Positions 16,462 to 37,475 are shown, counted from the first letter of the stretch. The stretch is DNA of 64,000 nt from Acutalibacteraceae bacterium (GCA_045616765.1 JAZLHL010000012.1:1756-65755), one strand, 5' to 3'. Numbers and translations are program-made. Notes: a model not told the origin generated them from the letters alone.

Positions 16462-16536
16462 TTCTCGGAAACTATACATAATTTCAATTATATATAGTTT
16501 CCCTGCTTGCAATGGTGCGGGACATATACAAACGAA

Positions 16537-16580
16537 AACCTGCTGAAAAGGATTTCCCTTCTCAGCAGGTGCTTTTTTAC
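16537..16580 (+). terminator. Intrinsic terminator-like hairpin inside the MITE-like element
   Basis: CCTGCTGA-loop-TCAGCAGG followed by GCTTTTTT. Confidence 0.5.
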
Positions 16581-16654
16581 ACAAAAACCGCCTTATCAAC
16601 CCGTAGCATTCAGCGAGGCGGATGTTGTTATATTTGGACTCTTGTAACGCACGA

Positions 16655-16699
16655 AATACAATATTTTGTATTGCTATTTGTTATACAATGGTGTATAAT
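16655..16699 (+). promoter_or_regulatory. relBE promoter with an upstream palindromic operator
   Basis: The palindrome AATACAA-TATT-TTGTATT lies at 16655-16672. The promoter is TTGCTA (16671-16676), a 17-nt spacer, then TATAAT (16694-16699). Confidence 0.5.
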
Positions 16700-16721
16700 A
16701 TGCTTGAATGGAGATGATATT

Positions 16722-17021
16722 ATGGCATCCAAAACAGCAAATGTACTCGCAAGGGTAGAACCGGATGTTAAAGTTCAAGCCGAAAATATTCTTGAAACAC
16801 TCGGTGTTCCGACATCCGTGCTCATAAATATGCTGTATAAACAAATCATTTTAACAAAAAGCATACCCTTTTCTCTGTCAGTTCCGTATATGCCTGCGGC
16901 AAGAGACGAGATGGATTCCGAGGCTTTTGATAAAATGATGGAACAAGGCTTGTCTGAAGCAAATGCAAAATCCGGTAAACCTGCCGCAGAGGTATTTAAT
17001 AATTTAATGCAGGAAATATGA
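16722..17021 (+). CDS. relB: Type II antitoxin, RelB/DinJ family
   Basis: The product begins MASKTANVLARVEPDVKVQAENILETLGVPTSVLINMLYKQII, typical of DinJ/RelB ribbon-helix-helix antitoxins. ATG 16722 follows a GGAGA RBS. Confidence 0.85.
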   Translation: MASKTANVLARVEPDVKVQAENILETLGVPTSVLINMLYKQIILTKSIPFSLSVPYMPAARDEMDSEAFDKMMEQGLSEANAKSGKPAAEVFNNLMQEI

Positions 17022-25483: not shown

Positions 25484-26836
25484 TTATAACGGTAAAAATG
25501 ATTTTGCAACCGCAAAGTAAACAAGCAGCGAAACCGCATCGACTATTGTTGTAATAAACGGGCTTGCCATTACTGCCGGGTCAAATTTGAGCTTTTTTGC
25601 GATTATGGGCAGCGTGCAGCCTATAAACTTTGCGCACACCACGGTGACGGCGAGCGTTGCCGCAACCACAAGCGCAACGGTGGTATTCACACCGTCCGAT
25701 TTCATAATCATACCGTCAATAAGCATAACCTTTGCGAAAGCCGCCACCGCAAGCGATGCGCCGCAAAGAATTGAAACGCGAAATTCTTTCCACATAACCT
25801 TTAATATATCGCCAACGGTTATATCGCCAACGGAAAGTCCGCGTATGATGGTAACGGATGCCTGACTGCCGGAATTACCGCCCGTATCCATAAGCATGGG
25901 GATAAATGCGGTAAGTATGACGAGCTTCGAGAGCGCATCCTCAAACGAAGAAATGATTATGCCCGTAAACGTGGCGGAAATCATCAGTAAAAGAAGCCAC
26001 GGAATACGGCTGCCCCAAATGCTCCACACGGAAGTTTTAAGGTAGGGCTTGTCGTTAGGCGTGATAGCCGCCATTTTCTGGAAGTCTTCCTCGGCTTCCT
26101 CCTGAATAACGTCGATAGCATCGTCAACGGTAACGATACCGACCATACAGTTTTCGTTATCTACGACGGGTAATGCGAGAAAATCGTATTTATTAAAGAG
26201 CTGCGCAACCTCTTCCTTATCGGCGTGAGTTTTAACGCTTATAAGGTTTTCCTCCATAACCTCGCTCACGAGCTTGTCGTCATCCTCGGTAAGCAGATCC
26301 TTAGCCGTGATTATGCCGAGCAGCTTATGCTTTTCAACAACATAGCAGCTGTTGACGGTTTCGGAGTGAACGCCCTTTGACTTAATGCTCTGTATTGCTG
26401 CACCAATCGTCATATTCGGAGTAAGCGAAACATACTCCAGCGTCATAATGCTGCCGGCGCTGTCCTCGGGGTAATTGAGCACGGCATTTATGGAGTTGCG
26501 CTTGCTGCCTGCGGCGGCGAGCATACGCTCCACAACATTTGCAGGCATTTCCTCGATAATGTCGACCGTATCGTCTATGAACATATCGTCCATAATATTC
26601 TTCAGTTCATTATCGGTAAAAGCTTCAAGGAGCACCTGCTCCTCCTCGGCTTCAAGGTAGGTGAACACCATTGCGGCGTTCTCCTTGGGAATAAGTCTGA
26701 AAAGAAGCACAAGCTCGCGCTCGCCGAACTCGGGCAGCAGAGCCGCCGTATCAACGGGGTTCATCGTGTCGAAAATGCTTTTAATTGCCTTGTACTGCTT
26801 TTCGGATAAAAGTCTTTCAAAAACTTCTTTGGTCAC
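25484..26836 (-). CDS. mgtE: Magnesium transporter MgtE
   Basis: The MgtE N-domain, CBS pair and TM domain (...FIPMLMDTGGNSGSQ...) are all present. The start is set to GTG 26836, 8 nt after an AGGAGG RBS. The track ORF extension to 27001 lies in the leader. Confidence 0.9.
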   Translation of the reverse strand: MTKEVFERLLSEKQYKAIKSIFDTMNPVDTAALLPEFGERELVLLFRLIPKENAAMVFTYLEAEEEQVLLEAFTDNELKNIMDDMFIDDTVDIIEEMPANVVERMLAAAGSKRNSINAVLNYPEDSAGSIMTLEYVSLTPNMTIGAAIQSIKSKGVHSETVNSCYVVEKHKLLGIITAKDLLTEDDDKLVSEVMEENLISVKTHADKEEVAQLFNKYDFLALPVVDNENCMVGIVTVDDAIDVIQEEAEEDFQKMAAITPNDKPYLKTSVWSIWGSRIPWLLLLMISATFTGIIISSFEDALSKLVILTAFIPMLMDTGGNSGSQASVTIIRGLSVGDITVGDILKVMWKEFRVSILCGASLAVAAFAKVMLIDGMIMKSDGVNTTVALVVAATLAVTVVCAKFIGCTLPIIAKKLKFDPAVMASPFITTIVDAVSLLVYFAVAKSFLPL

Positions 26837-27235
26837 TGTCCATACCTCCTTTTTTGATAGCCGCAAAATGCGGCTCCTTGCGGGGGCGAATGCCCCACCG
26901 CGGCAAATGCCGACGGAACGCAGAGTAGGTACGGGTATTAAGAAAACAAAAAACCGAGCACACCGGGCACGAAACCGCACCCGCTTGCTCGCGGAAAACA
27001 CATAACTGCCGATAAAAGCAGGCCTTCATCGGTTTATATGCGCAACATAAACCGGAATAACAAAAATCATTCCGTCACGCAAAAATATGTGTGAACAGAC
27101 CTACGTTCCGGAGGCTGTTCTGTTCCGCTGATATTCGGATAATTGCTACTTCGCCCGTGTCCGCTGCTACTGCCGGATTCCATCTATCTGTCACACTCCT
27201 TATATTAGTATTGGCATTTCAAACGAAAATACCTG
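26837..27235 (-). promoter_or_regulatory. Roughly 400-nt structured 5' leader of mgtE containing an internal intrinsic terminator (candidate riboswitch/attenuator, class not recognised)
   Basis: Several hairpins are present. The terminator is GAGCA..CGGGUGC-loop-GUGCCCG..UGCUC followed by GGUUUUUUGUUUU, at about 26945-26993. That is roughly 110 nt before the start codon. Confidence 0.55.
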
Positions 27236-27242
27236 CATAGCT

Positions 27243-27271
27243 ATAATATACCTCAAATTGCAATTTGTCAA
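27243..27271 (-). promoter_or_regulatory. SigA-type promoter of mgtE
   Basis: On the minus strand: TTGACA (27271-27266), a 17-nt spacer, then TATTAT (27248-27243). Confidence 0.65.
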
Positions 27272-27490
27272 TAATCCGAGTGAACTATTGCACTGAAAGA
27301 AACAATATGAAAAAAGGTTGCTGTCTGAGGGTGCCGATCAACTGCTTACAAATTGTTAGCAGTTGAAAATGAGAGCTACTGACGGTACAATCATTTTGTC
27401 GGTTTCAACGAAAATTCTATTAAGAATCATCTATCTATCACAAATATGGCAGATATACTTACTTCGTAATAATTAGGACTGTTTGGGACA

Positions 27491-27515
27491 TAAAAACACA
27501 CCGCCGAAGCGGTGG
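27491..27515 (-). terminator. Intrinsic terminator ending the SPFH-TIR operon
   Basis: On the minus strand: CCACCGC-UUCG-GCGGUGUG followed by UUUUUAU, 32 nt after the stop of the 275-aa gene. Confidence 0.7.
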
Positions 27516-27546
27516 AAAGACTTGCAATATTTTTCACTCATTACTT

Positions 27547-28374
27547 TTAATCAAAAATTTTATTTTTTAATAATTGTACAACTTGTAAAACAGCAGCGCT
27601 CATTTCAAATTTGCCTTTAATTGCATCATTTCGCAAACGATTAAACTCAAACATTTCATCATCTGAAAGCATTAATGATAACATAGGAAAAATCTTATTA
27701 TAAAGCATAGAAATATCTTCAGAGAGTCTTCTGACAGCATTTATATCTGAATCTCGGCAATTTGTTATGTTGGAATACTTTACACTTTTTCTTATAAAAT
27801 CAATTGTATCACGATATGTATCTATTCTTATGTCTGTTTCACTTGATTTTTGAATCGCATAACCATTTTCAAGAAAAACAGATGCAAGATAATCTGCACT
27901 ATCGTAAATTTGAACTCGTGTTTTTTTATTTTCCGAAACACAAATACCCTCAATTTCATTTGTTACATATATCAAATCTTTATCTATTTTTTCGCGGTAA
28001 TAATCAGCAAGAATATCTATTGCGTTTTCGACCAATTGCTTTATACGGGCTTCAGATGCATTTGTTCCTGCAGATGCAAATATAAGGCAATGCTCAATAA
28101 TTCGCGTTTTGACCTTTTCGCGTTCTTCCGATTCACCCCAAAAGTACTGATTCAAGTCATCATTTAGATTATTTTGGATATAATCACTGATACCACCAAA
28201 ATCGATTTCCTCATCAAATGCGGCATCGAAATTTCGTACATTTTGTTTTTCTAAATAAGCGCTCAGACGATTTCGGGCACTTGTTTTATTTTTAAAATCA
28301 ACTATTTTATCTTTGATAACGCTCAATCCTATATCTGCAATAAACTCTATTATTCTGTTTTTTCCTAAACTCAT
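27547..28374 (-). CDS. Hypothetical 275-aa protein, no domain recognised (last gene of the TIR operon)
   Basis: The ORF is long, uninterrupted and AT-rich. Its ATG directly abuts the TAA of the upstream mini-ORF (TAAATG). The product looks predominantly helical by eye, with no TM segment or signal peptide. Confidence 0.7.
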   Translation of the reverse strand: MSLGKNRIIEFIADIGLSVIKDKIVDFKNKTSARNRLSAYLEKQNVRNFDAAFDEEIDFGGISDYIQNNLNDDLNQYFWGESEEREKVKTRIIEHCLIFASAGTNASEARIKQLVENAIDILADYYREKIDKDLIYVTNEIEGICVSENKKTRVQIYDSADYLASVFLENGYAIQKSSETDIRIDTYRDTIDFIRKSVKYSNITNCRDSDINAVRRLSEDISMLYNKIFPMLSLMLSDDEMFEFNRLRNDAIKGKFEMSAAVLQVVQLLKNKIFD

Positions 28375-28521
28375 TTAATCATCCTTTATTATTGTTTTTC
28401 TTTTTACTAATGCTTCTTCAGCATAAGTTTCACTAGTGCCGCAATATTTGTACTCAACAACAGTTACGCCATCGATAACATCCATGTTGCCGCCACACAC
28501 TTTGCATTTAAAAATTGACAT
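28375..28521 (-). CDS. 48-aa degenerate zinc-ribbon mini-protein, paralogue of the TIR protein N-terminus
   Basis: Below the ORF-track size cutoff. Hand translation gives MSIFKCKVCGGNMDVIDGVTVVEYKYCGTSETYAEEALVKRKTIIKDD. 23 of its first 29 aa match the TIR protein start, and 72 of 87 nt match. One of the four Cys is lost (C24->Y). Confidence 0.55.
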   Translation of the reverse strand: MSIFKCKVCGGNMDVIDGVTVVEYKYCGTSETYAEEALVKRKTIIKDD

Positions 28522-28534
28522 AATATTACTTGTT

Positions 28535-31500
28535 TCACTTGGTTTTGATATTTTTCCAACCGCCTACATCAAATTGGCCGTGATAATAATCTTTATTACC
28601 GGTATATTTCGTAGTAACAACGGTACCATCAGATTTCAAGCCGACCGTATGTTTATAAGTCGTCGAAACAGCAACTACATCAGTCCATTCATCGACATCG
28701 CATTCACCGCAATAAAAATCTTCATCTCCTGTATATTTCGTAGCAACAACGGTACCGTCGGATTTTAAGCCGACCGTATGAGAAGCACCTGCAGAAATGG
28801 CAACAATATCCATCCATTCATCGACATCGCATTCACCGTTACTATTAACACCGCAAGCAACAACAGTGCCGTCGGATTTTAAGCCAACCGTATGTAATGA
28901 ACCTGCAGAAACGGCAACTATATCTTTCCAGTCGCCGACATCGCATTGACCGTAATCATTAGCGCCGCAGGCAACAACGGTACCATCAGATTTCAAGCCG
29001 ACCGTATTATACCAGCCTGCAGAAACGGCAACTATATCCGTCCATTCATCGACATCGCATCGACCGTTACCATTACTACCACAAGCAACAACGGTACCGT
29101 CTGATTTCAAACTGACCGTGTGAAACTGACTTGCCGAAACGGCAACAATATCCGTCCACACATCAACATCACATTGACCACTATAGTTTTCTTTATTACC
29201 AGTATATTTAGTTGCAACAACAGTACCGTCGGATTTTAAGCCGACGGTATGATCTCTACCAGCCGAAACGGCAACTATATCTTTCCAACCGCCGACATCG
29301 CATTGACCGTAATAATTATCGCCGCAGGCAATAACGGTGCCGTCGGATTTCAAGCCGACCGTATTATACCAGCTTGCCGAAACGGTTTCGCGAAAAGCAT
29401 TTTTATCCCATAAGTCGATTGATTTTTGCTTTGCATCCTTATAACCGCTTGCCGCACCAAATGCGACGGCGGCTTCATATTGTTTACGATCTTTTTCCAG
29501 AATACTCGCTTTGTTATAATAGCACTCTTTGAGTTTATCCGAACTATCTTTATATTCACCGATTATCGTAAAAGCGGCTATAGCTTCTTCGTATTTTTCG
29601 TCATTCATCAAACTGACGGCATTGTTATATTTGCATTCTGTAATTCTGTCAGCACTATCTTTATATCCGTTCGTTGCTTCAAATGCCGAAATCGCTTCGC
29701 TATATTTTCTGTTATTCATCAAAGCAACAGCATTTTTATATCTACCGTTCGGAATTATTACCGTTGTCAAAACTATAAGGAAGGCAATACAGGTAACGGT
29801 AATTGGTGTAACTATTGCAATAATTTTTTTTCGTTTTTTTGCTGCCGTTTCATCCGCTATGCGTTTTTCTTCGGCTTTTCGTGCAGCTTTTAGTCGGTCG
29901 GATTCTTCCTTTGCTTTGATTCCCTCGATTTTCTTTTGGCAAGCGTAAATCTGTTCGACTGCATCTTTCCAACCGGAAATCGTCATAAACACTTCGATTG
30001 CCTCTTCATAAGAAGCAATCCTTTCGCCGGTCATCTTATTCTTTGCAGAAGCATAAACAGCATCCTTACGGCGAATCTCGGCTTTTTCAAGGCACTGCTT
30101 TGCAAATGCATCGGCATCCTTCCAGCTCGGTATCATCTTAAAACTTTCGGCAGCGCATTCAAAAGAGTCGGCATTATTTTCTTCCATTTTTCTCAATGCC
30201 GACTGATATATATCATTCTTGCGGCAAATTTCGGCTTTTTCAAGGCACTGCTTTGCAAGCACATCGGCATCCTTAAAGCCATTTATTTTATCAAATTCCG
30301 CTGCGGCATATTTAAACTCACTTTCGGATTTTGCAATACCGAAAAGTTCTGTGCCTTTGTCATAAATCACCTGCTGTTTTGCCGTTTCGTTGCGCTCACG
30401 GATATAATCATTATCCGCTTTCAGTTTTTCGGCAAGTCCGGAATTAAGACTGCACACTTTTACATAATATTTGTTGTTATCAAAGGGTTGGGCTAAATCT
30501 TTAAGTACCTCTTCGGTATGTACTTTTAAATAAGCCATCAGTTTGCCAAGATAAGCGCGTGCGTTTTCCGGCTCAATATCAAGCACTCGTTCGCAATACT
30601 CGTCAGCTGACTGCCATTCTTCGTCTTTCAGAAAAATAAACACTCGTTTAAGAAGAGATTCAACTGTGGGGTTATTGCGTTGTTCTCTTATTACTACTCT
30701 TTCGATTTCTGCCTTTTTTTCTCTGTCGAATATTTTATCAATGCCGCGCAACAAATCCTGCATAAAGCCGAGTTTGCTCATATCCTGCGACTGTAAACCC
30801 TTGAACCCTTCGGGCATATCGTAAGCATCCATACCCTTAAAGCAGGGAATGAGTACCTTTGACTTGTCTTTAGCCATAAGCTTAATAAATCTTGACCATT
30901 CATTCTTGACCCAAACGGCGTTGTAATATTCATAATCGGTACCGATTGCAAGCATAAGCTTTGCCGAATTGAGTGCGGCAAATATATAAGGCTCATACTG
31001 CTGACCTAATTTATCTTCAAGCGTAATTCTTGAAAAGAATACTTTGTAGCCTTTTTTCGTGAGTTCATCATAAATGTCCTGCGCAATGACGGAATCGGGC
31101 GTTCTGCCACCGTTTCTATCGGTTTCTTTGTAACATATAAAAATATCATAAGGTTTTTCGCTACTGCTTATCGACAGTATTTCACCCATAATGCGGTCAA
31201 TCTCTTTTGCCTGTTCCTGATAAACAACACGCGCGCCGAGGTCGGCATATTCAAGGGCAAGTTCACAATTTTCATCTTTACGCAGTTTTTCAAAACTTGC
31301 GCGGTGAACGGTAGGAATTTTGGCGCCCGTTGCCGGGTCATCAACATATTCTATACCATAATTGCAAAGGCAAAGCCCCCAATAAGCCTCGGCTTCTTCA
31401 GGAAACTCCGCGATTATCTGCTCATAGATAGCACCCGCCTTGTCAAATTCACTGCTCATACGCAGACGGTTTGCACGGTTATATAAATTGAGTTTTTTCT

Positions 31501-31615
31501 CGTCGTTGACCTCAGGCACAGTCTGCTTTGTTCCGCAATATTCACATTCAACAACGGTTATGCCGTCGGTAACATCTATATTGCCGCCGCACATTTTGCA
31601 TTTAAAGATTGACAT
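28535..31615 (-). CDS. Transmembrane TIR-domain protein: zinc ribbon - TIR - helical/TPR-like repeats - TM - 7x RCC1-like repeats
   Basis: The start was trimmed to ATG 31615 (GAGGAG RBS), giving MSIFKCKMCGG...ECEYCGT. The TIR-like block is YDIFICYKETD...VFFSRITLEDKLG...AVWVKNEW (aa about 155-295). The TM segment follows KKRKK: IIAIVTPITVTCIAFLIVLTTVII (aa about 598-622). Seven HTVGLKSDGTVVACG..GQCDV..W.DIVAV repeats follow. Confidence 0.85.
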   Translation of the reverse strand: MSIFKCKMCGGNIDVTDGITVVECEYCGTKQTVPEVNDEKKLNLYNRANRLRMSSEFDKAGAIYEQIIAEFPEEAEAYWGLCLCNYGIEYVDDPATGAKIPTVHRASFEKLRKDENCELALEYADLGARVVYQEQAKEIDRIMGEILSISSSEKPYDIFICYKETDRNGGRTPDSVIAQDIYDELTKKGYKVFFSRITLEDKLGQQYEPYIFAALNSAKLMLAIGTDYEYYNAVWVKNEWSRFIKLMAKDKSKVLIPCFKGMDAYDMPEGFKGLQSQDMSKLGFMQDLLRGIDKIFDREKKAEIERVVIREQRNNPTVESLLKRVFIFLKDEEWQSADEYCERVLDIEPENARAYLGKLMAYLKVHTEEVLKDLAQPFDNNKYYVKVCSLNSGLAEKLKADNDYIRERNETAKQQVIYDKGTELFGIAKSESEFKYAAAEFDKINGFKDADVLAKQCLEKAEICRKNDIYQSALRKMEENNADSFECAAESFKMIPSWKDADAFAKQCLEKAEIRRKDAVYASAKNKMTGERIASYEEAIEVFMTISGWKDAVEQIYACQKKIEGIKAKEESDRLKAARKAEEKRIADETAAKKRKKIIAIVTPITVTCIAFLIVLTTVIIPNGRYKNAVALMNNRKYSEAISAFEATNGYKDSADRITECKYNNAVSLMNDEKYEEAIAAFTIIGEYKDSSDKLKECYYNKASILEKDRKQYEAAVAFGAASGYKDAKQKSIDLWDKNAFRETVSASWYNTVGLKSDGTVIACGDNYYGQCDVGGWKDIVAVSAGRDHTVGLKSDGTVVATKYTGNKENYSGQCDVDVWTDIVAVSASQFHTVSLKSDGTVVACGSNGNGRCDVDEWTDIVAVSAGWYNTVGLKSDGTVVACGANDYGQCDVGDWKDIVAVSAGSLHTVGLKSDGTVVACGVNSNGECDVDEWMDIVAISAGASHTVGLKSDGTVVATKYTGDEDFYCGECDVDEWTDVVAVSTTYKHTVGLKSDGTVVTTKYTGNKDYYHGQFDVGGWKNIKTK
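28538..29380 (-). repeat. Seven tandem coding repeats (38 or 43 codons) encoding RCC1-like beta-propeller blades
   Basis: The units start SASWYNTVGL, SAGRDHTVGL, SASQFHTVSL, SAGWYNTVGL, SAGSLHTVGL, SAGASHTVGL and STTYKHTVGL. Long stretches are identical at DNA level, for example GGTACCGTCGGATTTTAAGCCGACCGTATG. Confidence 0.85.
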
Positions 31616-31628
31616 ATGTTTTATCTCC

Positions 31629-32294
31629 TCATTTAAGCAATTTGCACATATTATTTCTTTCCGCAACGATTTCGACAACGTCATCTGCAAGTGTATCGAT
31701 ATTTGCACCGCTGCTTGTTACAGCCGCTGCAAATTCACCGAATTTTACAGACAAACGGTTTTCGACCTCATAAAGTGCTGCATTTGATACGGGGTCAGAT
31801 AAGCTAATTGCTTCATAAACCTTTTTGCAGGCTGCTTTTGCTTCAGGTGATTTTGCTTTTTGAGAAAGGGTAAGGGCATTGGCAGTCAATGACTTGATAA
31901 ACGAGGTTTTAACCTTGACCTTTTCATCAACCTCGCTGACAATTTCGGCGGCAGCTTGTGCCTTTAACACGGCGATAACAGTAATCAGCAGCACAACGAG
32001 GCAAATTACGGCACCGAGCATTCTGCCTATGGTTAAAAATACCGAAACAAGGCTGACAACAGCAGTAATAATAAGCCCTATGTAACTGACTTTGACAGTT
32101 GCGATACCGTAAAATACTTTTGTAAGATTTTCTTCTTTGAGTGCAAAATATGCACAGCCGAGTTGCACACAAAACGCAAGCACGGTAAGAGCAAGCGCTA
32201 TGTAATTGACACCGGGCAAAACAAGCGATAGCGCAAAATAAATGATAAGTGCTGCTGCCCATGCAACCGCATAAATTTTAAAATTCTTTTTCAT
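31629..32294 (-). CDS. Membrane protein (4 predicted TM helices plus a roughly 100-aa soluble helical C-terminal domain), unknown function
   Basis: The 221-aa product has four hydrophobic stretches in aa 8-125. A GAGAGGG RBS is present. The stop lies 13 nt before the TIR gene start. Confidence 0.75.
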   Translation of the reverse strand: MKKNFKIYAVAWAAALIIYFALSLVLPGVNYIALALTVLAFCVQLGCAYFALKEENLTKVFYGIATVKVSYIGLIITAVVSLVSVFLTIGRMLGAVICLVVLLITVIAVLKAQAAAEIVSEVDEKVKVKTSFIKSLTANALTLSQKAKSPEAKAACKKVYEAISLSDPVSNAALYEVENRLSVKFGEFAAAVTSSGANIDTLADDVVEIVAERNNMCKLLK

Positions 32295-32309
32295 AATCTG
32301 ACCCTCTCG

Positions 32310-33722
32310 TTATATTCCCCCGCATTCAAAGCAGAATTTTGCACCCTCGGGCACATCCTTGCCGCATTTCGGGCACGCCGTTACAAATTTGTGACCGCAT
32401 TCAAGGCAAAACTTACCCTTTGCCACGGTTTTGCCGCATTCGGGGCAAACTGTCATTCCGTCTGCAACGGTTTCGATTTTTTCACCGCAGCCGAAGCAGA
32501 ATTTTGCATTTGCGGGAAGCTCTGCGCCGCACTTGGGGCATTTTACGGTGCTTTCGGCGTTCTGCGCGGGTTTACCGTCTGTGCCGAAATCGGGCATCAT
32601 ATTATCCATCTGCCCCATCATAACGCCTGCCATCTTCATACCAGCCATCATGGAGACCATATCCGAAGCAATTCCGCCGCCTGCAGCGCCGCCGCCGCCG
32701 ACAGCCGGACCCATATTGCCGATACCTTCGGCATAGGCTTTCTGCACCTCGGCTTGAATAACATCTTTTTCCGTATAGCCTTTGGCGCGCATTACCTCAG
32801 CCTCGGCTAAGCCGCCGAGCCTTGCCGCCTGTGCTTCTGCCTGTGCTTCAATCACGGTGCGCTCCGCCTCGCGTTTGGCGATTTCGGTCTGTGTGGTCTG
32901 CTTTTCAAGCTCTATTGCTCGGCGTGCTGCCATAACATCGGCCTCCGCCTGAGCCTGGGCAGTGCGTACTGCCGCCTCTGCCTTTGCAACGCGAGTCTGC
33001 AGCGAAATTGTGTGCAGCTCTTTAAGCCGCTTAAAATCGGCATTTTCTTCGGGAAGTACCACTGTTGTAAGATAGAATTCGGGAATTGTAAGGCCGTACT
33101 CCTCAAAGCCGGGGAGTATTTTTTGGTGTAAGGTTGCAGAGAGGCTTTCAAGGTGTTCGTCGATTTCAAGAATATCGAACTCCTCCGCCTTGATTGCCTG
33201 CGAAAGATTTGATTTTACCGCCGTGGAAATGAGCGGACGGAAGCACTGCTGCAGCGATTTTGTAAAGCTTGCGGGCTCACGCTCCCACGCAATGCCGCTC
33301 ATAGTGCCTACAAGCTTTACAAGCAGCTTGCGGCTGTCGCACACCTGCAGATTCAGCGAGCCGCTTGCGCCTATTTCAATAGGAATACCGAAATCAGGGT
33401 CAATGTAACGGATTTTGCTGTCGGTACCCCATTTAAGAGCCATCTGTACGGTCTGATTTATAAAGTAAACCTCGCAGTGGAACGGGGTATCGCCGTCGGT
33501 GGTTTTGTTGAGCAGCTTGCCTAATTTGGGAATATTCTGCGTTTCAAGAGTGTATCTGCCGGGCCCGAACAAATCGAGCGCCTGACCGTTCATAAAGAAT
33601 ATTGCTTCCTGACTTTCGTGAACTATAAGCTGTGTGAGGGAATTAAAATCCTCGCACGGGTGTTTCCAGATAAATGTTGAATTGTCGCCTTCGTACTTGA
33701 TGATTTCTGCAATTTTTGCCAT
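32310..33722 (-). CDS. SPFH/band-7 family protein (COG4260 / YdjI-like) with three C-terminal zinc ribbons
   Basis: The N-terminus MAKIAEIIKYEGDNSTFIWKHP...LIVHESQEAIFFMNGQ is typical of the Band_7_1 SPFH family. An A/E/Q-rich coiled coil and a Gly/Met-rich linker follow. Three CPxCG...FCxxCG ribbons close the protein. Confidence 0.85.
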   Translation of the reverse strand: MAKIAEIIKYEGDNSTFIWKHPCEDFNSLTQLIVHESQEAIFFMNGQALDLFGPGRYTLETQNIPKLGKLLNKTTDGDTPFHCEVYFINQTVQMALKWGTDSKIRYIDPDFGIPIEIGASGSLNLQVCDSRKLLVKLVGTMSGIAWEREPASFTKSLQQCFRPLISTAVKSNLSQAIKAEEFDILEIDEHLESLSATLHQKILPGFEEYGLTIPEFYLTTVVLPEENADFKRLKELHTISLQTRVAKAEAAVRTAQAQAEADVMAARRAIELEKQTTQTEIAKREAERTVIEAQAEAQAARLGGLAEAEVMRAKGYTEKDVIQAEVQKAYAEGIGNMGPAVGGGGAAGGGIASDMVSMMAGMKMAGVMMGQMDNMMPDFGTDGKPAQNAESTVKCPKCGAELPANAKFCFGCGEKIETVADGMTVCPECGKTVAKGKFCLECGHKFVTACPKCGKDVPEGAKFCFECGGI

Positions 33723-33783
33723 TGGTCCACCTCATATAATTATTATTTAGTCGTAAAAAAACAAAAATATATATTTTTTATAA

Positions 33784-33816
33784 AATACACCGCGGGTTTC
33801 GCACTCGCGGTGTATT
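33784..33816 (-). terminator. Terminator-like hairpin inside the 5' leader of the SPFH-TIR operon (possible attenuator)
   Basis: AATACACCGCG-11 nt-CGCGGTGTATT followed by TTTATAAAAAAT on the minus strand. It lies between the predicted promoter (about 33854-33883) and the start codon at 33722. Confidence 0.45.
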
Positions 33817-33853
33817 CAGCGAATTCTAAACAAGAACTCTTTACTGTGCCCCC

Positions 33854-33897
33854 ATATTACCATTGAACCCTTCGGCAAGTCTTATGCTGCGAGCATA
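33854..33897 (-). promoter_or_regulatory. Predicted promoter of the SPFH-TIR operon, overlapped by the 19-bp operator (copy 1)
   Basis: On the minus strand: AAGACT (33883-33878), an 18-nt spacer, then TAATAT (33859-33854). The operator GTCTTATGCTGCGAGCATA at 33879-33897 contains the palindrome TATGCT-GCG-AGCATA. Confidence 0.45.
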
Positions 33898-34052
33898 ATC
33901 ACAAATTAATAATACGGTTTTTGCCGAAATAATATTTATAAGTGTGCATTCATATTATAAATCGTATTATTCGCATTGTCAAGTGAATTCCGACTACGCG
34001 TTTGTTTAACCGCGCCACCTTACGATTTATGATATAAGTGAGGTGGTATAAT

Positions 34053-34379
34053 ATGTATGTAGATTATAAAGAAGTCGGCAAAAGAATTGCGGCACGGCGC
34101 AAAGAGCTCGGCTTAAAGCAGTGCGAAGTAACAGAGCTTGCCGAACTCAGTGATAAATACCTTTCAAACATTGAACGCGCAACATCGGTGGTGAGCATTG
34201 ACGTGCTTATGAAGCTTTGCAATGTACTCAACGCAACGCCGAATGACTTTTTGCTCGGCTCTACCGGTAATATTGCAGATAAAGCGCGTATAGATTATTA
34301 CGCCGCCAAAATAAACGAGCTTAATGACGACAAGAAAGCGCTTGTTATAGGTTTTATTGACTGGCTGAAAGATTTTTAA
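34053..34379 (+). CDS. XRE-family HTH transcriptional regulator
   Basis: The product begins MYVDYKEVGKRIAARRKELGLKQCEVTELAELSDKYLSNIERA. ATG 34053 follows a GTGAGGTGG RBS. Confidence 0.85.
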   Translation: MYVDYKEVGKRIAARRKELGLKQCEVTELAELSDKYLSNIERATSVVSIDVLMKLCNVLNATPNDFLLGSTGNIADKARIDYYAAKINELNDDKKALVIGFIDWLKDF

Positions 34380-34392
34380 AGCACTTTAATGC

Positions 34393-34430
34393 AACTCTCC
34401 GAACCATTCCCGGCGTTCGGAGAGTTTTTA
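34393..34430. terminator. Bidirectional terminator between convergent genes
   Basis: AACTCTCCGAAC-loop-GTTCGGAGAGTT followed by TTTA. Confidence 0.8.
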
Positions 34431-34436
34431 TAATTT

Positions 34437-35249
34437 TTATACCAAATAATACTCCGTCAACCAACCCATATTGTGCTCATAGCCCTCATAAAACCATGGA
34501 TTATATATCAGCAAAACCTGTTTTGAACCGTTTTGAAGCTCTTTAAACAAATCGGCAAAATCATCGCGAGTGGCGTAAATATACATTGTATCCATATATG
34601 AGCCGCCTTTTGGTGTTACCGAGATGCAGAAGCAAATCGGTTCAAGGTCACTGTAGCCCCAGTTATAATATGTATCAAGCTCAGCCGTACCCTCTACATA
34701 CACATTTTTACCGACATAGCTGAACGGAGCGTATTTGAAATCATTGATGTTAATATTGCTTTTCTTCTTATCTTCGATCAGTTGTTTATTCTTTTCGCTT
34801 TCTTTATGTGCTTCAACCGCATCAAGAACTACCTGCGGCGGAGTTTTGGTATCTGTGCTGATTTTATCATATAAATGAGTTCCTTCTATAAAGTTATCAT
34901 GCACCAATACTGTATTTTTACTGGTGCCGTCATCAGAAATAAGTTCTATGTAACCTTTCAGATTATACCTTACAGTGCCGCTCCAACCATTAATAAGGGC
35001 ATTATTGCCGTTGTTTATATATTCTGCAATCAAATAATTATTAATAGAGTAACTTTTGTAGGATTCGCCGTTGATAACCAAAACATCTCCGCTGTAATCG
35101 CCGTACCAGGTCCCTTTTAAATCATTTATCATATCGGACTCGGTTGAATATTTCTTTGTATTACTCGTATCAACACATCCCGAAAGCAGTGTGCACATCA
35201 TAGTCAAGACAATTAAAAGTGAAATTGCGGATATTACTTTCTTTTTCAT
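34437..35249 (-). CDS. Lipoprotein, unknown function
   Basis: The signal peptide carries a lipobox: MKKKVISAISLLIVLTMMCTLLSGC. An AAGGGGGA RBS is present. Confidence 0.8.
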   Translation of the reverse strand: MKKKVISAISLLIVLTMMCTLLSGCVDTSNTKKYSTESDMINDLKGTWYGDYSGDVLVINGESYKSYSINNYLIAEYINNGNNALINGWSGTVRYNLKGYIELISDDGTSKNTVLVHDNFIEGTHLYDKISTDTKTPPQVVLDAVEAHKESEKNKQLIEDKKKSNININDFKYAPFSYVGKNVYVEGTAELDTYYNWGYSDLEPICFCISVTPKGGSYMDTMYIYATRDDFADLFKELQNGSKQVLLIYNPWFYEGYEHNMGWLTEYYLV

Positions 35250-35293
35250 TAAAAATCCCCCTTAATTTTTGTGTAACCATATTCCATTGAATA

Positions 35294-35440
35294 TTAAACC
35301 CTGTTGCAGCTCCACCAGACTATTCTTGCACCGGGGAACGATGCGGCAATAAGCTTTTTCGCCTCGATACTTGACTGAGCCTTGACCATCTGCTCGGTGC
35401 GCACACCGTTTACCGAAAATACGCAGCGGTACATTTGCAT
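35294..35440 (-). CDS. Unannotated 48-aa small protein upstream of the lipoprotein gene
   Basis: Hand translation gives MQMYRCVFSVNGVRTEQMVKAQSSIEAKKLIAASFPGARIVWWSCNRV. A strong AGGGGGTGAG RBS lies directly upstream. A perfect TATAAT (minus strand, 35466-35461) lies about 20 nt further up. Confidence 0.5.
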   Translation of the reverse strand: MQMYRCVFSVNGVRTEQMVKAQSSIEAKKLIAASFPGARIVWWSCNRV

Positions 35441-35460
35441 ACTCTCACCCCCTTTTTGCG

Positions 35461-35532
35461 ATTATAGCGCAATGAAAGTGGTTTGTCTTATGCTGCGAGC
35501 ATATTGAAATTATTTTACTTTTGTGTTAATAT
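35461..35532. promoter_or_regulatory. Divergent promoter pair sharing the 19-bp operator (copy 2)
   Basis: The operator GTCTTATGCTGCGAGCATA lies at 35485-35503. The minus-strand promoter is AAGACA (35489-35484), a 17-nt spacer, then TATAAT (35466-35461). The plus-strand promoter is TTGAAA (35504-35509), a 17-nt spacer, then TGtTAATAT (35527-35532). Confidence 0.55.
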
Positions 35533-35554
35533 CGGCTTGTCAGGGGGAGTGAAT

Positions 35555-35977
35555 ATGCACAAGGATACCTCAAAAATGCTCGAAGAGCTCAAGGCTTGTA
35601 CTGAATTTGAGCGTTTTTATGATGAGAATAAAAAATACGCCGCGGATTTAACGCTCGCGGAATATATTGAAACGCTTTTAAAAGAAAAAAAGCTTTCAAA
35701 GGCAGCTGTGATAAAGGATGCGGAAATGAGCGAGGTTTACGCCTACCAGATAATGTCCGGTTTACGAATCCCGGACCGCAAAAAGCTCCTGTGTCTCGCA
35801 TTCGGTATGAAGCTCAATCTTGAAGAAACGCAGAAAATGCTTAAATGCACCGGCTACGCGCCGCTTTATGTGAAAAATACATTTGACTGCATTGTGATTT
35901 ACGGCTTGTGCAACGGCTTCACCGTGCCCGATGTGAACGAAAAGCTTTACGATTTCGGATTGGAGACGCTCGGATAA
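35555..35977 (+). CDS. XRE-like HTH domain protein (140 aa)
   Basis: The segment ...LSKAAVIKDAEMSEVYAYQIMSGLRIPDRKKLLCLAF... is HTH-like. ATG 35555 follows a GGGGGAG RBS. The stop overlaps the next start (TAATG). Confidence 0.7.
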   Translation: MHKDTSKMLEELKACTEFERFYDENKKYAADLTLAEYIETLLKEKKLSKAAVIKDAEMSEVYAYQIMSGLRIPDRKKLLCLAFGMKLNLEETQKMLKCTGYAPLYVKNTFDCIVIYGLCNGFTVPDVNEKLYDFGLETLG

Positions 35978-36729
35978 TGCAAAACAAAACCATTTGCCCG
36001 TATTGCGGCGCAGCCCTGCAGGAAAATGCCTCGTTTTGCCTGCACTGTATGAAAAGTCTTGATGAAAAAACCGAAATAAAAAAGAAAAAATCAGCTCCGA
36101 AAAAGCTGATTGTTACTGTCGGTATTGCTGCCGCCGTCTGCATTGCCGCGGTATGTATAATAATTGCCGTAATCGGCAACAAGCCAAAACCCATATGCAC
36201 GCCGGATGAGTTCATTGCCGCCGCTCAGGCTTCAACCGCAAAACTTGACTGCGCAGAGCTGTGGCAGCCTGCCGATTTAGTGCAGACCCATTACAATAAA
36301 AAAGAAAACGACAGTGTTTATAACACAAAGTGTTCGCTATGTGATGCAGGCGTTTCCGTAATATTCAGAAACGGCGGCGAGGTGGTGGATATTGCGCTTT
36401 GCGATATCCGTGAAAGCGACCTTGAAAATGCATATGTTATAAGCGAAAGCGCGCTTTCTGCGGCATTCGGGTATTATCAGGTCGAGCTTGCCGATATGCT
36501 GCACGATAAAAGCGCATATCCGCGCTTTGATTTTGAAAAGCCGTTTGAAGAATACTTTACCGATGTGCTCAAACGCACAGACAGATACAATGCTCTCGCC
36601 GAAAGCGGTGATATTTCCACCGAATTTTTTGAGGCGGTAACGGAAGACGGCGAAACTCTGCTGTACTTTTTGACAGAGCATACCGAAAGCAACGAAACAC
36701 TGTACGATTTATATTTTGAAATACAATAA
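35977..36729 (+). CDS. Zinc-ribbon / single-TM membrane protein with an extracytoplasmic domain
   Basis: The zinc ribbon is MQNKTICPYCGAALQENASFCLHCM. After KKKKSAPKK comes the TM segment LIVTVGIAAAVCIAAVCIIIAVI, then a roughly 170-aa domain. Confidence 0.75.
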   Translation: MQNKTICPYCGAALQENASFCLHCMKSLDEKTEIKKKKSAPKKLIVTVGIAAAVCIAAVCIIIAVIGNKPKPICTPDEFIAAAQASTAKLDCAELWQPADLVQTHYNKKENDSVYNTKCSLCDAGVSVIFRNGGEVVDIALCDIRESDLENAYVISESALSAAFGYYQVELADMLHDKSAYPRFDFEKPFEEYFTDVLKRTDRYNALAESGDISTEFFEAVTEDGETLLYFLTEHTESNETLYDLYFEIQ

Positions 36730-36734
36730 AAAGA

Positions 36735-36771
36735 TTGTGACGAAACAAAAAATCTTCGTCACAACTTTTTT
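36735..36771. terminator. Bidirectional terminator
   Basis: TTGTGACGAA-loop-TTCGTCACAA followed by CTTTTTT. The left flank is A-rich. Confidence 0.8.
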
Positions 36772-37475
36772 CACAGAGCCGATTTGACCGCAGCCACACT
36801 TTGATAACGCGCCGCAGGGTCAATACTTGTGCATTTCAGCACGATTTTGCCTGCTCTGCCGTCTGCAAGGCATTCACTCGGGTGGCGCTGCGTAAGCATA
36901 ACATTTATAAGCACGCCCAATGCGTAAATATCGGCGCGGCTGTCAGTCTGCGAAATACCAAGCTGCTCGGGCGCGGCATAGCCCACGGTACCAAGCACCT
37001 CAGTATCGGCGGAAGCTGCGGTTTTATATATGCGCGAGGCATTAAAATCAATAAGCTTTACCGTTCCGTTTTTATCTACAATGATATTTTCGGGCTTTAT
37101 ATCGCGGTGAACAAAGCCGTTTTTATGCATAATATCAAGCGCATCGCATACGGCGGATATTACTGTTTTCATTCCGTGATATGTATATTTACCGCTTTCA
37201 AGCACCTCGGCGACTGTCACGCCGTCAATGTATTCCTCAATAACCGCCTGCCCGTTATCCGTTTTGTAAACATCGTATATAACAGGCAGATTTTCAAAAA
37301 CAATGCCTTTAAAGAATGAATATACGGGCACCTCGGTTTCATATAGCCGCAAAACGAGCTTTTTATCTAATGCGCGGTGATTAAGCAGCAGCACTCGGCA
37401 ATCGTTTTTTTGCGACAACACGCGGCAAAGATAATATTCCGCCTTTAACTGCTCATAAAATTCGTCATTCGTCAT
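36771..37475 (-). CDS. Stand-alone Ser/Thr protein kinase catalytic domain with a degenerate N-lobe
   Basis: HRDIKPENIIV, DFN (in place of DFG) and GTVGYAAPEQ are present. No GxGxxG loop is visible. The position expected for the VAIK lysine reads LVLRL. Confidence 0.8.
   Translation of the reverse strand: MTNDEFYEQLKAEYYLCRVLSQKNDCRVLLLNHRALDKKLVLRLYETEVPVYSFFKGIVFENLPVIYDVYKTDNGQAVIEEYIDGVTVAEVLESGKYTYHGMKTVISAVCDALDIMHKNGFVHRDIKPENIIVDKNGTVKLIDFNASRIYKTAASADTEVLGTVGYAAPEQLGISQTDSRADIYALGVLINVMLTQRHPSECLADGRAGKIVLKCTSIDPAARYQSVAAVKSAL

Follow-up and report, generated by a model that had tools for sequence, protein, structure and literature searches.

What does a bacterium do with a TIR domain that is joined, through one transmembrane (TM) helix, to a beta propeller predicted to lie outside the cell? 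The question is raised by gene 3 of a four-gene operon in a 64,000-nucleotide (nt) stretch of DNA from an Acutalibacteraceae bacterium (GCA_045616765.1 JAZLHL010000012.1:1756-65755; hereafter the window, in which positions are counted from the first letter of the stretch). Judged from its sequence and model, the product of gene 3 combines a constant head, made up of a Cys4 zinc ribbon, a conserved helical domain and a TIR domain apparently equipped for catalysis, with a swappable tail, here three helical repeats and an RCC1-like propeller; the same evidence supports a single-pass type II membrane protein, with a cytoplasmic head (N-in) and an extracytoplasmic tail (C-out). Genes with this head belong to a conserved cassette that comprises an SPFH gene, a gene for a membrane protein of ~230 residues and one to five zinc ribbon-TIR (ZnR-TIR) paralogues with differing tails. 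The role we consider most likely, while giving it about an even chance of being correct, is that of a triggered, NAD-cleaving (NAD, nicotinamide adenine dinucleotide) TIR module on an SPFH membrane scaffold, serving in defence against phage or envelope attack or in a linked response to envelope damage.

The open reading frame (ORF) of gene 3 begins with the ATG at 31615, which has a GAGGAG ribosome-binding site (RBS) 8 nt upstream, and its homologues all start with MxxFKCKMCGG. A longer ORF from the GTG at 31708 was rejected, since the RBS and the N-termini of the homologues favour the ATG. The product is 100% identical to a 1026-residue database protein, and because its architecture recurs in at least 8000 candidates of the database search it is no chance pattern. 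In a preliminary description of this DNA, a domain order had been counted by hand, and every element of it was recovered: a CxxC...CxxC ribbon at residues 6-27 (C6, C9, C24 and C27 are all present); a TIR-like block at about residues 155-295, where Pfam and the model place a TIR domain; three cytoplasmic repeats; a K/E-rich coiled coil, modelled as a long helix (residues 552-597) that ends in KKRKK; a hydrophobic helix of 25 residues after KKRKK, at about 598-622; three repeats beyond this helix; and seven RCC1-like blades, matched one by one by RCC1_2. The domain boundaries are given in Table 1.

The head is conserved throughout. In the zinc ribbon, all 120 homologues keep C9, C24 and C27, and 118 of them keep C6. 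The helical domain that follows (residues 37-152) was modelled by AlphaFold2 (AF2) with TPR-like helices at residues 39-85 and a hairpin at 88-103; it holds about 20 invariant residues (e.g., EAEAYWGL.LC.YGIEYVDDP...PTCHR) and is a candidate docking surface. Pfam TIR_2 matches the TIR domain at residues 158-281 (E 1.6e-10; 42 bits, where the cut-off is 28), and in the AF2 model of this domain, with strand beta-A at 158-161 and helix alpha-E at 284-295, the predicted local distance difference test score (pLDDT) is about 85-90. Fold comparison was used in place of a TIR profile because the family is too tight for a profile to gain from it: the family profile of the TIR block had no match to PDB sequences at E <= 0.01 and three weak TIR matches at E <= 10. 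When the head model (residues 1-340, from an alignment of 29 family sequences; mean pLDDT 84.7) was compared with the PDB in Foldseek, the top 15 matches were all TIR domains with a probability of 1.0, among them flax L7, Roq1, SARM1, TIR-STING, SPARTA TIR-APAZ, MAL, AbTir and MyD88, at target-normalised TM-scores of about 0.6-0.7 against stand-alone TIR structures. Structure prediction followed by Foldseek, which the preliminary description had set as a check on its TIR-like block, has thereby confirmed the fold.

The start of helix alpha-C carries the motif W235-V-K-N-E239-W (Glu239 codon, 30899..30901 on the minus strand). It had been proposed by eye that Glu239 occupies the catalytic position of SxWCxxE, and the HMMER alignment agrees, as W235 and E239 line up with the W and E of SKWCLMEL in flax L6/L7 and of SCWCQYEL in the TIR of one Toll-like receptor (TLR). 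We take the Glu of this motif in plant L6/L7 to be the catalytic residue of NAD-cleaving TIRs. None of 120 close homologues departs from W235 or E239, nor from some 40 further TIR positions, and both residues are likewise kept in 115/115 members taken from different species; the TIR block as a whole averages 76% column identity in the family. Such invariance fits an enzyme under strong constraint. The WxxxE motif points to a TIR of the enzyme type, unlike the adaptor-recruiting TIR of TLRs, and the TIR domain of gene 3 is probably active as an enzyme, bearing as it does the signature of the NAD-cleaving class.

On which side of the membrane do the head and the tail reside? KKRKK followed by IIAIVTPITVTCIAFLIVLTTVIIP constitutes the only hydrophobic segment of the gene 3 product (Kyte-Doolittle 2.76), and the hydropathy scan found no N-terminal hydrophobic segment or signal peptide. 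A single TM helix of this kind is present in 111/120 of the best homologues, and in these 111 the 15 residues before the helix contain on average 7.2 lysines and arginines (K/R) compared with 2.1 after it, with an excess before the helix in 110/111. Cys4 zinc ribbons and NAD-using folds both belong in the cytoplasm. Because of the single hydrophobic helix, the K/R bias, the lack of a signal peptide and a zinc ribbon and NAD-using fold of cytoplasmic type, an N-in/C-out orientation is supported as a prediction, in which the TIR domain would lie inside, the propeller outside, and about 400 residues would be exported. The preliminary description had arrived at the same orientation by the positive-inside rule, and both hydropathy and the charge bias of the homologues speak for it. 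In the full-length AF2 model (pLDDT 84.7) an unbroken helix passes through the membrane segment.

One type of helical repeat (Y..A......Y.EAI..F..I.G[YWF]KD[AS]....C) occurs three times on each side of the TM helix, with the extracytoplasmic copies marked by G/E-YKD[SA] at residues 650, 687 and 724. A single repeat family on both sides of a membrane is unusual. Since the same repeat type is found on both sides, it looks like the TM helix was dropped into a pre-existing soluble repeat array, that is, inserted into a soluble architecture.

The tail of gene 3 ends in the propeller, on which Pfam RCC1_2 has seven matches (E 2.5e-48), with blades that span 36-50 residues each. In the model it is closed and confident, with pLDDT mostly above 90, and Foldseek relates it to UVR8, to the RCC1-like domains (RLDs) of HERC1/2 and to RCC1 (best E 3.5e-12), with which it shares seven blades and the RCC1_2 repeat signature. 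It differs from these propellers in its repeat units, which are short (38 or 43 residues) and unusually alike (mean blade-to-blade identity 65%), and in its predicted position outside the cytoplasm on a TM-helix tether. BLIP-II, an inhibitor secreted by Streptomyces, offers a precedent for an extracellular binder of the RCC1-like kind with short blades. The blades are of two subtypes, one of 38 residues with ACGxNxxG and one of 43 residues with ATKYTGxxxxYxG, and variation is concentrated in two loops per blade. At the DNA level the propeller consists of tandem repeats with a period of 114/129 nt and 79-81% matches (window 28583..29179), and the blades suggest recent intragenic duplication or conversion. 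The GC skew over these repeats is strongly negative (-0.21).

Is this propeller then the defining part of the protein? The family indicates otherwise. Across 4642 database proteins the first ~300-340 residues are 57-76% identical, while the C-terminal parts are practically unalignable (7% mean column identity). A Pfam census of 113 tails found RCC1_2 in 33, DUF6273 in 29, MORN in 3, BspA-type leucine-rich repeats (LRR_5) in 2, and LRR_8 and WG repeats in 1 each; the remaining tails have no Pfam family and include multi-TM, tail-anchored and zinc-ribbon endings. The census was used in place of clustering the tails by all-against-all BLAST, which was abandoned as the shared helical linker repeats fuse everything into one component. 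The source annotations of relatives, few of which were seen, read merely "TIR domain-containing protein".

This distribution bears on the idea that the protein serves surface display or adhesion, with a propeller that binds the cell wall, host glycans or other cells, a head that anchors or regulates it, and a vestigial TIR domain. Tails of the surface or binding type on related heads (RCC1_2, BspA-type LRR_5 and the lectin-like DUF6273) and blades as self-similar as those of repeat adhesins agree with it. It is nevertheless the head that is conserved, the tails being near zero in identity, and the catalytic motif is invariant; moreover, 62/115 family proteins in the whole sample have no TM helix, so that their tails cannot be displayed, and the hydropathy scan of gene 3 shows one internal helix and no N-terminal signal sequence (LPXTG-type anchors were not searched for). 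We regard an adhesive role as highly improbable.

About a quarter of the family ends in DUF6273, which sits at the extreme C-terminus as it does in targets of diversity-generating retroelements (DGRs); seven of the loci illustrate this. Previously, DUF6273 was modelled as a C-type-lectin fold in phage receptor-binding proteins and in DGR targets (PMC10743442, PMC11792537). A scan of nine genes with DUF6273 tails revealed no DGR template or variable repeats in the fetched flanks (reverse-transcriptase genes were not searched for), and the only similarity was that of paralogue to paralogue, without A-biased mismatches. Lacking a template/variable repeat signature, DGR diversification of these tails was rejected. 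A sign of turnover was seen in the locus of a common gut relative, where a paralogue shared by three assemblies has been replaced in a fourth (L001 versus L002); this locus adjoins serine recombinases, a Mob protein and a Fic/VbhA pair.

The placement of the tail relative to the membrane also varies. Among the RCC1-tailed members in species-representative genomes, 13/34 have a TM helix before the propeller and 21/34 have none, and because of the latter we conclude that an extracellular propeller is optional in the family; the Toll-like layout of gene 3 is one variant and does not define the logic of the family. Therefore, signalling from the outside inward by way of the propeller cannot hold for the family in general. 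RCC1 paralogues without a TM helix often adjoin one that bears it, and flank the SPFH gene (four loci and others). The RCC1 paralogues suggest paired "inside" and "outside" versions.

We therefore turn to the genes with which the head is found. Using the head alignment as query against one genome per species, at least 585 matches were obtained and 80 loci kept. All 80 are from gut or rumen Bacillota, and those with a named organism are almost all Clostridia (Oscillospiraceae, Acutalibacteraceae, Lachnospiraceae and Ruminococcaceae); the nearest named relatives are metagenome-assembled genomes of Clostridia, Acutalibacteraceae and Oscillospiraceae. An SPFH homologue adjoins the TIR family gene in 51/84 fetched loci, on the same strand every time. 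Among species-genome loci with a full TIR ORF the SPFH gene is present in 44/74, and in 20/29 of those with at least 5 kb of flank on each side. Starting from the SPFH gene in metagenomes, the TIR head is found in 60/80 loci, and in 18/19 with enough flank. The linkage of TIR and SPFH genes is thus reciprocal, holding from both starting points. A homologue of the 221-residue membrane protein occurs in 44/84 fetched loci, in every case between the SPFH gene and a TIR gene. With T for the TIR gene, S for SPFH and m for the membrane protein, the usual orders are T-S-m-T, S-m-T, T-S-m and S-m-T-T, co-oriented throughout and with up to five TIR paralogues in a row per locus. The same core cassette is shown by a 49%-identical relative found on 688 contigs.

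These data also bear on whether gene 3 could act as a stand-alone bacterial counterpart of a Toll-like receptor, whose propeller binds an external ligand and whose TIR domain signals by itself, with the neighbouring genes incidental. Topology and domain order are as such a receptor would have them, the variable positions between blades fall in the propeller loops, and bacterial N-in/C-out sensors with large cytoplasmic N-terminal domains do exist, such as PASTA kinases and RsgI anti-sigma factors. However, a linkage that is reciprocal and co-oriented is not incidental, and no downstream adaptor or effector is evident; the RCC1-tailed relatives that have no TM helix, and a repeat type shared by both sides of the membrane, which suggests an inserted helix and not a dedicated design for transmembrane signalling, also argue against it. 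Overall, we consider a stand-alone receptor unlikely.

In the window, genes 1-4 form an operon with gene 3 in third position, as judged from the gaps of 13-15 nt (the ATG of gene 3 lies 13 nt downstream of the gene 2 stop), the strong RBS, and the promoter match and terminator hairpin that bracket the four genes (Table 1). The promoter is the single perfect consensus match in the scanned region of 27-36 kb, and the terminator-like hairpin is GC-rich. Gene 1 encodes the SPFH protein, in which Band_7_1 (residues 30-226) is followed by a coiled coil and by low-complexity sequence rich in Gly and Met, with two double zinc ribbons at residues 391-470 and no hydrophobic segment in the hydropathy scan. 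The product of gene 2 is hydrophobic over residues 7-111 (about four helices) and continues in a helical cytoplasmic tail of about 110 residues with a conserved SDP motif and a C-terminus of ERNxxCKLxK; it matched no significant family in Pfam, NCBIfam or PADLOC. Between genes 3 and 4 lies a stump that resembles the start of gene 3, in which the third Cys has become Tyr and the stop abuts the ATG of gene 4. It looks like the remnant of a lost second tandem paralogue. Gene 4 was rejected as a component of the system, as its homologue was found in 0/84 related loci, and it is probably a local replacement outside the core system.

Table 1. Positions of gene 3, its domains and the surrounding features in the window.
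Feature	Position	Strand	Basis or remark
Gene 3, ZnR/helical/TIR/TM/RCC1-propeller protein, 1026 aa	28535..31615	-	ORF, Pfam, database match, RBS, model
Zinc ribbon, aa 1-36 (C6, C9, C24, C27)	31508..31615	-	Modelled as four short beta strands
Conserved helical domain with beta hairpin, aa 37-152	31160..31507	-	Invariant columns, AF2 model, weak Pfam TPR_16/TPR_19 matches
TIR domain, aa 153-297	30725..31159	-	Pfam TIR_2, AF2, Foldseek, Glu alignment, invariance
Cytoplasmic helical-repeat region, aa 318-597	29825..30664	-	Three G[FW]KDA repeats (aa about 419-571) and K/E-rich long helix
Cytoplasmic copies of the helical repeat, aa 419-571	29903..30361	-	G[FW]KDA motif at aa 446, 497, 548
Single transmembrane helix, aa 598-622	29750..29824	-	Hydropathy, positive-inside bias in homologues, model helix
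Three extracytoplasmic helical-hairpin repeats, aa 623-740	29396..29749	-	Y..A..L....Y.EAI.AF...GYKDS; repeat motif, Pfam, model
Seven-bladed RCC1-like beta propeller, aa 741-1026	28538..29395	-	Pfam RCC1_2 x7, Foldseek, blade alignment, DNA repeats
Gene 1, soluble SPFH protein, 470 aa	32310..33722	-	Pfam Band_7_1 E 1.2e-37, DZR E 1.8e-17
Gene 2, membrane protein, 221 aa	31629..32294	-	Start 15 nt after gene 1 stop
Paralogue stump, 48 codons, MSIFKCKVCGGNMDV...VEYKYCGT	28375..28521	-	71% identical over 35 aa to gene 3 aa 1-35
Gene 4, soluble protein with no detectable family, 275 aa	27547..28374	-	Pfam, NCBIfam, PADLOC scans
Candidate operon promoter TTGACA-17 nt-TATAAT (12/12)	33954..33982	-	Consensus match only; about 230 nt upstream of SPFH start
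Terminator-like hairpin CACCGCTTCGGCGGTG with T-rich tail	27499..27514	-	Consensus match only; 33 nt past gene 4 stop
XRE-type helix-turn-helix (HTH) protein, 113 aa, divergent from operon promoter	34038..34379	+	Pfam HTH_3

Divergent from the operon promoter is the gene of the HTH protein, a possible local regulator of the operon. It matches the PADLOC models HTH_VI and capH (a CBASS regulator) at E 1e-8 to 1e-9, which may reflect a generic HTH fold. In 2-kb bins, the GC content across about 26-36 kb is 0.40-0.42, except at 32-34 kb, where the SPFH gene raises it to 0.475, compared with 0.46-0.50 in the flanks; the low-GC stretch (about 26000..36000) is compatible with an acquired island. The flanks of the window carry housekeeping genes (MgtE, GDPD, a major facilitator superfamily (MFS) transporter and oxidoreductases). 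Further features were noted in the window. At 35908..36729 (plus strand) a 273-residue protein has a zinc ribbon at its N-terminus, a single TM helix and a domain placed outside the cytoplasm, the ZnR-TM layout in miniature. Its gene adjoins that of a short, 234-residue Ser/Thr kinase domain at 36771..37475 (minus strand), matched by the PD-T4-6 kinase models of PADLOC (E down to 3e-37), a match that may be generic. A 169-residue protein at 16512..17021 (plus strand) has a RelB antitoxin domain (E 7e-10).

What do the partner genes imply about function? In a previous study, YdjI of B. subtilis was described as a soluble protein of the SPFH type that has a zinc finger at its C-terminus (PMC8581546) and needs the membrane proteins YdjG (a zinc-ribbon protein) and YdjH for the membrane clusters that recruit PspA (PMC8581546; Popp et al.). 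The cassette resembles this module in that a soluble Band_7_1 protein, which contains a low-complexity stretch and ends in a zinc finger, is encoded along with two membrane proteins, one of them with a zinc ribbon. The cassette could accordingly be a housekeeping system for envelope stress, a Clostridial elaboration of YdjG/H/I membrane repair in which the ZnR membrane proteins act as YdjG-like anchors or cell-wall sensors and the TIR domain is mainly an oligomerisation or adaptor domain, or a modest metabolic regulator, and not an immune NADase. This is a serious rival, if on balance an improbable one. The YdjI architecture of gene 1 (Band_7_1, no TM helix, low complexity, C-terminal zinc fingers) and the likeness of YdjG, itself a zinc-ribbon membrane protein, speak for it, as do the chromosomal location of the cassette without a significant PADLOC match and with almost no occurrence in phage or plasmid collections, and the housekeeping genes that flank the operon. 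The cassette differs from YdjGHI in that its zinc-ribbon membrane partner, expanded into arrays of paralogues, includes a TIR domain and tails that are large and variable, and in that PspA/IM30 is found in neither the window operon, nor its flanks, nor the annotated homologous locus L001, where PspA_IM30 was not matched. The strict conservation of WxxxE and about 40 further TIR residues is as expected of an active site and not of a mere scaffold, and a housekeeping stress pathway would not usually show paralogue arrays whose ligand-binding tails are unrelated, gain and loss between strains, or stumps.

Tandem arrays, tail folds of the ligand-binding kind, replacement between strains, a stump and lower GC are hallmarks that favour a conflict system, and it is because of the paralogue arrays, the ligand-binding tails, their turnover and the invariant TIR active site that we favour an immune role. 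In the TIR module that we propose, the heads would be held at the membrane through a complex of the SPFH and membrane proteins. The tail would read a cue, outside the cell for forms with a TM helix such as gene 3 and inside for paralogues without one; alternatively, the cue may be a perturbation of the membrane read by the SPFH assembly. Such a cue would cluster the TIR domains, and clustering would complete a composite active site and lead to cleavage of NAD+, as in other TIR enzymes, with NAD+ depletion or a signal derived from ADP-ribose (ADPR) as the putative outcome. It should be noted that immune and envelope-stress roles are not exclusive, as membrane damage could be the trigger.

A number of observations weigh against this proposal. 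The topology is based on hydropathy and charge heuristics, and the 21/34 RCC1-tailed paralogues without a TM helix do not share it. PDB sequence matches to TIR are each weak (E 0.02-0.4), and the TIR assignment therefore rests on Pfam and the fold. PADLOC (2023 models) gave no significant match for the four operon proteins, with a marginal match of LmuB to gene 2 (E 0.0039), and the Thoeris model ThcB4 of NCBIfam remained below threshold on the operon proteins (15.7 bits against a cut-off of 220); the cassette as a known defence system was rejected on these grounds. No recognisable effector or signal receptor (SIR2, SLOG, Macro, STING or SAVED) is present in the operon, and YdjGHI, the closest characterised analogue of the partner genes, is a system of envelope stress and not of immunity. 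Finally, a tblastn search with the head had no match in 50,697 phage records or 72,556 plasmid records, and 2.9 million IMG/VR contigs yielded 3 weak or contextual matches. We rejected a phage- or plasmid-borne element on the basis of this near absence, which we count among the objections, while it weighs neither way on a defence role. Two IMG/VR contigs classed as viral contain full heads at 57% identity, for which a prophage flank and a phage gene are alike possible.

Innate immunity in animals, plants and bacteria alike draws on TIR domains, and a family in which a cytoplasmic TIR equipped for catalysis is wired by one helix to an extracellular binder would make testable the old question of when and how TIR signalling met surface recognition. 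To our knowledge, the characterised bacterial TIR systems all sense their trigger inside the cell. We tentatively suggest, as a possibility that we would not call probable, that an immune or surveillance system not described so far, and very widespread in gut Clostridia, is made up of a YdjI-like SPFH/zinc-ribbon protein, the membrane protein of ~230 residues and an array of ZnR-TIR receptors. In it, a germline-like repertoire of receptors with a shared NAD-cleaving TIR head and interchangeable ligand-binding tails, facing inward or, as in gene 3, outward, would be put together on the SPFH scaffold at the membrane and fired there. If this were true, a direct coupling of recognition outside the cell to a TIR enzyme in the cytoplasm would be seen in bacterial proteins for the first time, in the outward-facing members, which would be a functional analogue of Toll-like receptors of independent origin. 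Neither the family nor the cassette was found described in literature searches that paired TIR with RCC1, SPFH, zinc ribbon, anti-phage or transmembrane (subscription journals were not covered). The family is large, with at least 8000 database candidates and at least 585 species-genome matches, and concentrated in abundant Clostridia of the gut and rumen. Were it a system of defence or envelope surveillance, it would represent a sizeable blind spot in the phage-host biology of the microbiome, and the linkage would give a concrete biochemical job to a poorly understood class of bacterial SPFH proteins.

How does gene 3 compare with known TIR systems? With enzymatic TIRs (AbTir, ThsB, TIR-STING, SPARTA TIR-APAZ, plant TNL proteins and SARM1) it shares the fold, the W...E at the start of alpha-C, and the fusion of TIR to a putative sensor of the repeat type. 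Like them, it would be expected to be activated by oligomerisation. Unlike in those systems, a zinc ribbon and a conserved helical domain come before the TIR domain of gene 3; the partner is not ThsA, STING, SAVED, Argonaute or NB-ARC, its place being taken by an SPFH/zinc-ribbon protein and a polytopic membrane protein; and many ZnR-TIR members, gene 3 included, are predicted integral membrane proteins with an extracytoplasmic tail. With respect to Thoeris, Pfam and PADLOC detected no SIR2, SLOG or Macro in the operon neighbours, the partners by which ThsB would be recognised.

The preliminary description had likened gene 3 to the logic of eukaryotic Toll-like receptors, and of this the layout stands: like metazoan Toll-like and IL-1 receptors, it would be single-pass, with a repeat ectodomain outside and TIR in the cytoplasm. 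The polarity, however, is inverted relative to TLRs, the TIR domain of gene 3 (residues 153-297) being N-terminal of the TM helix (598-622) in a type II anchor without signal peptide; the ectodomain consists of an RCC1 propeller and helical repeats and not of LRR or Ig domains; and the TIR domain keeps a Glu of the catalytic type. BspA-type LRRs were seen in the family as the tails of two ZnR-TIR members only. The comparison also overlooks the siblings without a TM helix, 21/34 among RCC1-tailed relatives, and the conserved operon of SPFH and membrane-protein genes in which gene 3 is embedded and which sets it apart from a stand-alone receptor. We conclude that the match to TLRs is an analogy of layout only, and not an architecture shared by descent. 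ZnR-TIR proteins, as read from their sequences, belong to the TIR superfamily and carry the signature of its enzymatic class; what is new in them is the architecture of the head, the partner genes and the predicted outward-facing subclass.

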